DNA from: Escherichia phage vB_ECOLIGBLB0003
Length of the DNA: 64,000 nucleotides
Reading direction: 5' to 3' (one strand)
Sequence record: PV654517
In this document: positions 61,267 through 61,538 of the stretch, piece after piece
Position numbering within the stretch: the stretch's first letter is position 1
Layout of the letters: every line of letters starts with the position of its first letter
Made by a program: the position numbers and the translations under genes
The notes under the pieces: generated by a model
Database searches by the model: none
Told to the model about the DNA's origin: nothing
What the model saw: the letters and a program-made list of their open reading frames with translations, nothing else

Positions 61267-61337
61267 TATTTTTCCTTTCAATTCATGGGTTAGTAGATTA
61301 ATTATACAATAAATATATAAAGCAACAAGGAGGACAT

Positions 61338-61538
61338 ATGGTACAAAAATTAATGGCACTTGTTAATGCCATAAAAGGTAATAAAAAACGTATAGCTTTT
61401 ACTATTTCTGCTATGGTAGGAATTTTACTCTGGAACTTTATTCTATCACCTGTTGCAATTGCGCATGGTGTTAATATTCCAGTAGTTACTCTTGATACAT
61501 TCGTAGATCTAGCATTTGCTTTAGTTGGGTTAATTTAA
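61338..61538 (+). CDS. hypothetical small membrane protein, 66 aa, divergent from gene 56
   Basis: AAGGAGG 7 nt before ATG; two hydrophobic segments; 3-prime end overlaps gene 61 stop on the opposite strand. Confidence 0.5.
   Translation: MVQKLMALVNAIKGNKKRIAFTISAMVGILLWNFILSPVAIAHGVNIPVVTLDTFVDLAFALVGLI

Follow-up and report, generated by a model that had tools for sequence, protein, structure and literature searches.

The dam gene is a known accessory gene of bacteriophage T4. In the T4 reference record NC_000866, this region is arranged in the order soc, segF, 56, dam (16846-17625), an unannotated gap of 309 nt, and 61. In the record of T4T (HM137666.1), a small gene next to dam is annotated as 'dam.1, hypothetical protein' (ADJ39749.1), while Petrov 2010, which describes T4T, does so without mention of dam (PMC2993671). 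A second type of junction is carried by RB32, AR1, wV7 and VEc74, in which the order is 56, dam.1 and 61. We analyzed 64,000 nucleotides of Escherichia phage vB_ECOLIGBLB0003 (record PV654517; this whole 64-kb stretch is called the window below) and compared the interval between genes 56 and 61 with both arrangements. The window was identical to no record, and its closest match over 24 kb reached 96.7%.

The initial annotation had proposed that the start of gene 56 (61266) and the stop of gene 61 (61535) are about 270 nt apart, and that dam is missing from between them. The interval was found to be 268 nt, with both genes on the minus strand, so that there is no space for the 259-aa Dam protein, and no ORF homologous to T4 Dam was present at the junction. 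A tblastn search of the 64-kb window with T4 Dam returned no homolog (best E=0.56), and the control search of the T4 locus gave 5.7e-179. A SegF homolog, which in T4 is encoded between soc and gene 56, was also absent from the window. The local order is therefore gene 56, its middle promoter, dam.1 on the opposite strand, and gene 61 (Table 1). Gene 56 homologues are annotated as dCTP pyrophosphatase in VEc74, SA20RB and RB32. As a separate observation, the GATC sequence was scarce in this window, with 78 copies compared to about 208 expected from base composition.

Table 1. Features of the gene 56 / gene 61 region, in positions of the window
Feature	Position	Strand	Basis and remarks
soc	60420..60665	minus	
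Gene 56 (dCTP pyrophosphatase)	60748..61266	minus	ORF and translation; ATG is CAT at 61264-61266
MotA-type middle promoter of gene 56	61301..61326	minus	Predicted from sequence; mot box GTTGCTTTA at 61318-61326, 11-nt spacer, -10 TATAAT at 61301-61306
Late-promoter-like box AATAAATA	61308..61315	plus	Predicted; 7 of 8 matches to the T4 late consensus TATAAATA; predicted start near 61321
Shine-Dalgarno AAGGAGG	61327..61333	plus	4 nt before the dam.1 ATG
dam.1 (RB32ORF030w, phrog_2024), 66-aa predicted small inner-membrane protein	61338..61538	plus	ORF, tblastn, PHROGs
Intrinsic-terminator-like hairpin	61343..61372	minus	ATGGCATTAACAAGTGCCAT then TAATTTTTGT (T-run); downstream of gene 61, inside dam.1 codons 2-12
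Gene 61 (DNA primase)	61535..62563	minus	Stop codon at the 61535 end

The genes soc, 56, dam.1 and 61 of the T4 and T2 regions (X01416, NC_000866, AP018813) were homologous to those of the window and in the same order, and both gene 61 and dam.1 were about 98% identical. Gene 61 with its adjoining gap showed 97.8% nucleotide identity to T4 (T4 locus 3226-4677, window 61327-62777). Unlike the window, T4 carries segF, a diverged gene 56 allele and a T4-specific block of 919 nt (T4 locus 2307-3225), which stands in place of 40 nt of the window (61287-61326). According to the annotation of X01416, this block contains dam together with an early promoter of its own, P(E)17.40. The extra block of T4 and T2, about 920 nt long, sits between the gene 56 promoter and dam.1, and T2 differs from the window by a further gene of 181 aa between dam and dam.1. 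The position between genes 56 and 61 that the initial annotation gave for T4 dam agrees with the T4 record, and T4 itself does not have the short junction.

To evaluate how common this arrangement is, we applied megablast with window positions 61100-61700 against phage records, and counted a junction as lacking dam when one contiguous match covered at least 80% of the query. The results showed that 322 of the 554 matching phage records had the contiguous dam-less junction, including RB32, RB33, AR1 and wV7. The junctions of RB32, AR1, wV7 and VEc74 were 96.8-97.8% identical to that of the window over these positions. A T4-type Dam (at least 90% identity) was found in about 182 records and the dam.1 ORF (at least 90% identity) in about 500, and the dam records and dam-less junctions together approximately account for the dam.1 records. 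These results indicate that most sequenced relatives in Tequatrovirus, about two thirds, have the dam-less junction, and that this phage has the common form of the 56-61 region. Outside this genus, dam was missing from the junction between gene 56 and the primase gene in all four phages inspected (Mosigvirus JK42, Jiaodavirus JD18, Moonvirus CF1 and Yersinia phage P8).

The phage could also have moved dam rather than lost it, and encode Dam outside the 64 kb. Aligned with RB32, the window starts at about 122.7 kb, passes the genome end and reaches 19 kb, and so covers part of the genome. In other Tevenvirinae genera, dam sits elsewhere on the map, such as at about 152 kb in RB16. However, the complete genome of RB32, which shares the junction of the window, contained no Dam homolog at any position (best E=1.0), and the tallies above fit without any relocation. 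We consider a relocated dam to have a very small probability, and loss or absence of the gene remains the preferred reading.

The comparison of gene 56 showed a different pattern from its surroundings. The window allele had 77.9% nucleotide identity to T4 gene 56, and the genes flanking it had 95-98%. At the protein level, the product was 74% identical to that of T4 and 71% identical to that of T2, and was thus roughly equally distant from both. With these identities, the window gene 56 looks like a third allele, of RB32 type, that goes with the dam-less haplotype, and the dam-less state was probably exchanged as a block along with this diverged allele.

Two further genes of variable distribution were noticed in the region. 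The 181-aa gene of T2 (AP018813 locus 1865..2410, minus strand) is also present in many dam-positive relatives, and gave a weak, sub-threshold match to the Pfam DpnII family (E=0.0096, 15.7 bits, cut-off 23). GATC is the site of Dam, and DpnII cuts this sequence when it is unmethylated. In phage Shinka, a gene beside dam is annotated as 'putative restriction endonuclease'. The T2 gene beside dam may be the remnant of a restriction-modification cassette. On the other side of gene 61, the window encodes an ORF of 118 aa (62733..63089, minus strand) at the position of T4 gene 61.2. It matched Pfam PF23813, AdfA (anti-DarT factor A), with E=1.9e-8 and 34.4 bits (cut-off 27), in the C-terminal half of the profile only (113-211 of 211). 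An ORF of 357 nt occupies the equivalent place in RB32 and T2 (RB32ORF033c, 'similar to gp61.2'), and we take it by position to be the same gene. Full-length 61.2 is present in RB32, in addition to RB32ORF033c, and in VEc74, whereas the window lacks it.

The initial annotation had further placed in the gap a plus-strand ORF of 66 aa (61338..61538), oriented opposite to every neighboring gene. Both points held, and all annotated neighbors are on the minus strand. The stop codons of this ORF and of gene 61 overlap tail to tail by 4 nt (61535-61538). The same gene is annotated in RB32 as RB32ORF030w with the note 'similar to RB69ORF029w', and its product matched phrog_2024, an entry of PHROGs without function, with E=1.5e-31 (residues 2-66 against positions 1-65 of the 65-position profile). 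Therefore, dam.1 of T4T, the RB32 ORF and phrog_2024 represent the gene found in the window, with the same position and orientation by the 3' end of the primase gene. The gene was 100% identical in T4 strain 147 (17724..17921, unannotated there), and 98.5% identical to the copy in NC_000866, which lies inside the unannotated gap between dam and 61, and to the RB32-type and VEc74 copies. In tblastn searches, 692 phage records matched the 66-aa product, and DNA primase was the annotation under or beside almost all of the matches listed. The placement at the 3' end of the primase gene, on the opposite strand and on the gene 56 side, was the same in the window, T4T, RB32, VEc74, JK42, JD18, CF1 and P8.

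The ORF had been described as occupying the gap instead of dam. This part of the description was wrong, since T4 has the same ORF between dam and gene 61. That T4 carries dam.1 beside dam shows dam.1 to be independent of the presence of dam; what differs is the neighboring promoter, which belongs to gene 56 in the window and RB32, and to dam in T4T. In T2 and T6, dam.1 is labeled 'putative head morphogenesis protein', a name that is unsupported and was apparently copied from the record of a similar phage. We searched the literature under the gene, ORF and family names and the protein accessions, and found no paper on dam.1. Both the dam-less junction and the small ORF are already on record in hundreds of GenBank annotations, in RB69 and RB32, in dam.1 of T4T, and in PHROGs. 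Both are ordinary features of these phages and carry small weight as a discovery.

The open frame by itself proves little, because its surroundings contain spurious ORFs of comparable size (61542..61745, for instance); the chance of 66 open codons in DNA this AT-rich was estimated from base composition at about 0.008 per frame. We examined the conservation of the ORF. A homolog on the plus strand was present at the junction of gene 56 and the primase gene in all four inspected phages outside Tequatrovirus, namely JK42, JD18, CF1 and P8. The homologues were 63-66 aa in length, with identities of 54-56% in Mosigvirus, 49-51% in P8, and about 30% in Jiaodavirus and Moonvirus. An alignment across five phage lineages showed that K13, W32, N33, G44 and G64 were invariant. 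In CF1, two additional genes lie between gene 56 and the dam.1 homolog. In P8 (Yersinia phage vB_YenM_P8), a homing endonuclease gene (locus 2780..3547, minus strand) separates the dam.1 homolog from the primase gene, and the ORF is intact, so that its conservation is no by-product of the overlap with gene 61. The concern that the plus-strand ORF might be unconserved was thus removed.

The substitution pattern was analyzed by the Nei-Gojobori method. Among pairs with computable dS, dN/dS was 0.05-0.30 within Tequatrovirus and 0.02-0.51 between genera. Between the window and four Tequatrovirus relatives, synonymous differences numbered 4-6 and non-synonymous differences 1-2, even though non-synonymous sites outnumber synonymous ones about threefold (pS 0.085-0.125, pN 0.007-0.013). 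These results indicate that dam.1 is under purifying selection.

It could be argued that the plus-strand ORF is no gene, that the DNA is conserved because it holds the terminator and 3' untranslated region of gene 61, along with the region of the gene 56 or dam promoter, and that the frame is incidental. A terminator-like hairpin of the minus strand does lie inside the ORF, and the records of NC_000866 and T4 strain 147 leave the ORF unannotated. However, the frame has remained open for 63-66 codons at 30-55% amino acid identity across genera with five invariant residues, pS exceeds pN, a strong Shine-Dalgarno sequence precedes the ORF in every lineage compared, and the P8 ORF is intact despite the homing endonuclease gene before the primase gene. 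In JK42, whose sequence was read by eye, no counterpart of the Tequatrovirus hairpin was noticed. We regard an incidental frame as very improbable, and these comparisons of sequence show that dam.1 is a real protein-coding gene.

The family was confined to enterobacterial T-even-like phages in our searches. An exhaustive HMMER search of 1.84 billion representatives returned family members and three long repetitive proteins only, two of which were inspected and proved to be repeat noise. A word-indexed protein search recovered close relatives of dam.1 only, and a profile search of all ORFs of RB32 and of the window found no dam.1 paralog. A variant was noticed in the laboratory-evolved T4_ev240 (LR597657, locus about 1450-1460), where an A-run of dam.1 has lost one nucleotide (AAAAAA to AAAAA), so that the reading frame is shifted beyond about codon 17. 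This could be either a real loss or a homopolymer sequencing error; if it is no sequencing error, dam.1 is dispensable in the laboratory.

The upstream region of dam.1 had been reported to carry a near-consensus Shine-Dalgarno sequence 7 nt before the ATG and an ATAAATA element about 25 nt upstream. Both sequences are there, and both distances needed correction: the last base of AAGGAGG (61327-61333) is 4 nt before the ATG, and ATAAATA (61309-61315) is 22 nt before it. Each of the seven lineages compared has kept the Shine-Dalgarno sequence, as AGGAGG or AAGGAG. In six upstream contexts with little other similarity (dam-less Tequatrovirus, T4, T2, JK42, P8 and JD18), ATAAATA was found 12-24 nt before the ATG, and the seventh, CF1, has TAAATA and a 6/8 match to the late consensus. 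The claim of a strong ribosome-binding site with a late-promoter-like box was thus supported by the sequence comparison. The late consensus TATAAATA is used here as cited in the SA20RB annotation and in a T4 dRNA-seq preprint, which lists 150 transcription starts of the phage, including 22 antisense ones (bioRxiv 10.1101/2024.04.04.588121).

The box was AATAAATA in the window, RB32 and JK42, GATAAATA in T4 and T2, and CATAAATA in P8 and JD18. Compared with T4 late genes, which are served by gp55, gp33 and gp45 at the box TATAAATA about 6 nt before the transcription start, the dam.1 box has 7 of 8 matches and is spaced as usual from a strong ribosome-binding site. The T4 late consensus begins with T, whereas the first base of the dam.1 boxes was A, G or C, and never T, in the lineages compared. 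The same non-consensus AATAAATA occurs 18 nt before the ATG of a 218-aa ORF of the window (start near 36695), which we take to be the T4-type holin gene t. In JD18, only 12 nt separate the end of the box from the ATG, and the usual late start position would give an estimated leader of about 7 nt with part of the ribosome-binding site.

ATAAATA was under-represented in the window, with 18 copies against 37 +/- 6 in shuffled sequences. About 7 of the 18 copies, including that of dam.1, are located 18-34 nt upstream of ORFs with a ribosome-binding site, among them soc and the presumed holin gene t; examples of the ATAAATA boxes in the window are those at 36668-36675 (plus strand) and 60695-60702 (minus strand). 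In dam-less phages, the box lies within the spacer of the gene 56 middle promoter, an element that SA20RB annotates as a T4 middle promoter, GCTT(N13-15)TATAAT, and some of the conservation of the box could therefore be due to that promoter. In T4, JK42 and P8, the box is outside such a spacer, which argues that it is conserved for its own sake. Taken as sequence evidence, these comparisons suggest that dam.1 is most likely transcribed late from a gp55-type promoter.

At the other end of the interval, the minus-strand hairpin downstream of gene 61, located at 61353-61372 and accompanied by a T-run, had a folding energy of -8.9 kcal/mol (z = -2.56), and SA20RB annotates a rho-independent terminator there. 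The hairpin lies at the 5' end of dam.1, and if it works as a terminator, gene 61 transcripts would run antisense across nearly all of dam.1. No convincing plus-strand terminator was found after dam.1 (z = -0.34), so late transcripts may continue antisense into gene 61.

The dam.1 product had been described as a membrane protein with two hydrophobic segments. Residues 1-18 are hydrophilic and basic (K4, K13, K16, K17 and R18), and residues 19-66 are continuously hydrophobic, with D53 and D57 as the only charged residues. An AlphaFold2 model based on an 18-sequence alignment (mean pLDDT 80) placed helices at residues 2-12, 16-42 and 52-63, and a loop at 43-51. Hydropathy and the modeled helix thus support the prediction of a membrane protein. 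The two segments agree with the data as far as their hydrophobicity is concerned, but residues 19-66 form one unbroken stretch, within which a long helix (16-42) and a 12-residue helix (52-63) are predicted. The latter is too short to span the membrane alone. By the positive-inside rule, the basic N-terminus is predicted to be in the cytoplasm, and the topology in this model could be either a single span with a short periplasmic helix or a tight helical hairpin. No match for dam.1 was found in Pfam, NCBIfam or the PDB, and Foldseek against viral structure models returned family members only at meaningful scores.

Taken together, these data suggest the following picture. The protein would begin with a short basic segment, probably cytoplasmic, continue into a long transmembrane helix with a conserved W-N-F/Y motif and a proline, and then pass through a conserved (A)HG...P...L(D/E) loop into a short hydrophobic C-terminal helix. 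The gene would be transcribed late from AATAAATA, opposite to the surrounding early and middle genes, into an mRNA complementary to the 3' untranslated tail of gene 61 transcripts. Through this antisense overlap, the expression of dam.1 could be coupled to gene 61. Accepting dam.1 as a real gene, we consider it most likely to be a late-expressed small inner-membrane protein.

A small late membrane protein might act as a holin or in lysis control, by forming or regulating membrane lesions. The size of dam.1, its predicted transmembrane helix and its late-type promoter are compatible with this, and one family member, UniProt A0A482MZV5 of phage OE5505, is labeled 'Holin'. That label, however, is a single unsupported database name, and no holin family in Pfam or NCBIfam matched. 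The C-terminus (AFALVGLI) is hydrophobic, with D53 and D57 as the only charged residues near it, compared to the charged hydrophilic end of holins. Moreover, dam.1 lies between genes 56 and 61, away from endolysin and spanin genes; the presumed holin gene t of the window is about 25 kb off, and RB32 annotates t, rI and rIII as well as both spanins. A holin-like function is accordingly improbable in our assessment.

The arrangement of the two genes also brings to mind a type I toxin, that is, a small hydrophobic peptide whose mRNA would stay silenced, up to the late phase of infection, by the 3' tail of the abundant early and middle transcript of gene 61, to which it would be fully complementary. 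The genes are convergent with a 4-nt overlap, and a terminator at the 5' end of dam.1 would place antisense RNA over nearly the whole ORF. This reading is drawn from architecture, and the architecture varies: in P8 the homing endonuclease gene parts the ORF from the primase gene, and in JD18 there is a gap of 17 nt with no overlap. The antisense arrangement is therefore not strictly kept across lineages. Opposed early and late transcription is, besides, common in T4. We give a type I toxin hardly any credence, and return to the reading of dam.1 as a late inner-membrane protein.

As a best guess, dam.1 would serve a dispensable late envelope function, such as lysis timing, lysis inhibition or exclusion, and confidence in any specific role is low. 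That dam.1 is a real late inner-membrane protein in every enterobacterial T-even-like lineage inspected, and in addition has a definable late envelope role, seems rather unlikely to us as a combined statement. On the other hand, we are largely confident that the window derives from a mosaic Tequatrovirus with the common dam-less form of the 56-61 region, and that dam.1 is a real gene independent of dam which most likely encodes a late inner-membrane protein.

The T4 reference record may also be the reason why dam.1 has escaped study, as it omits the gene. A T4 time-course study counted reads on features annotated in NC_000866.4 only (PMC9697503), and since this record omits dam.1, the time course could not have reported it. 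More generally, T4 analyses based on NC_000866 are blind to a gene under purifying selection, and adding dam.1 to the reference would be worthwhile. As a conserved predicted late membrane protein in the best-studied phage, dam.1 would be a cheap target for a knockout.
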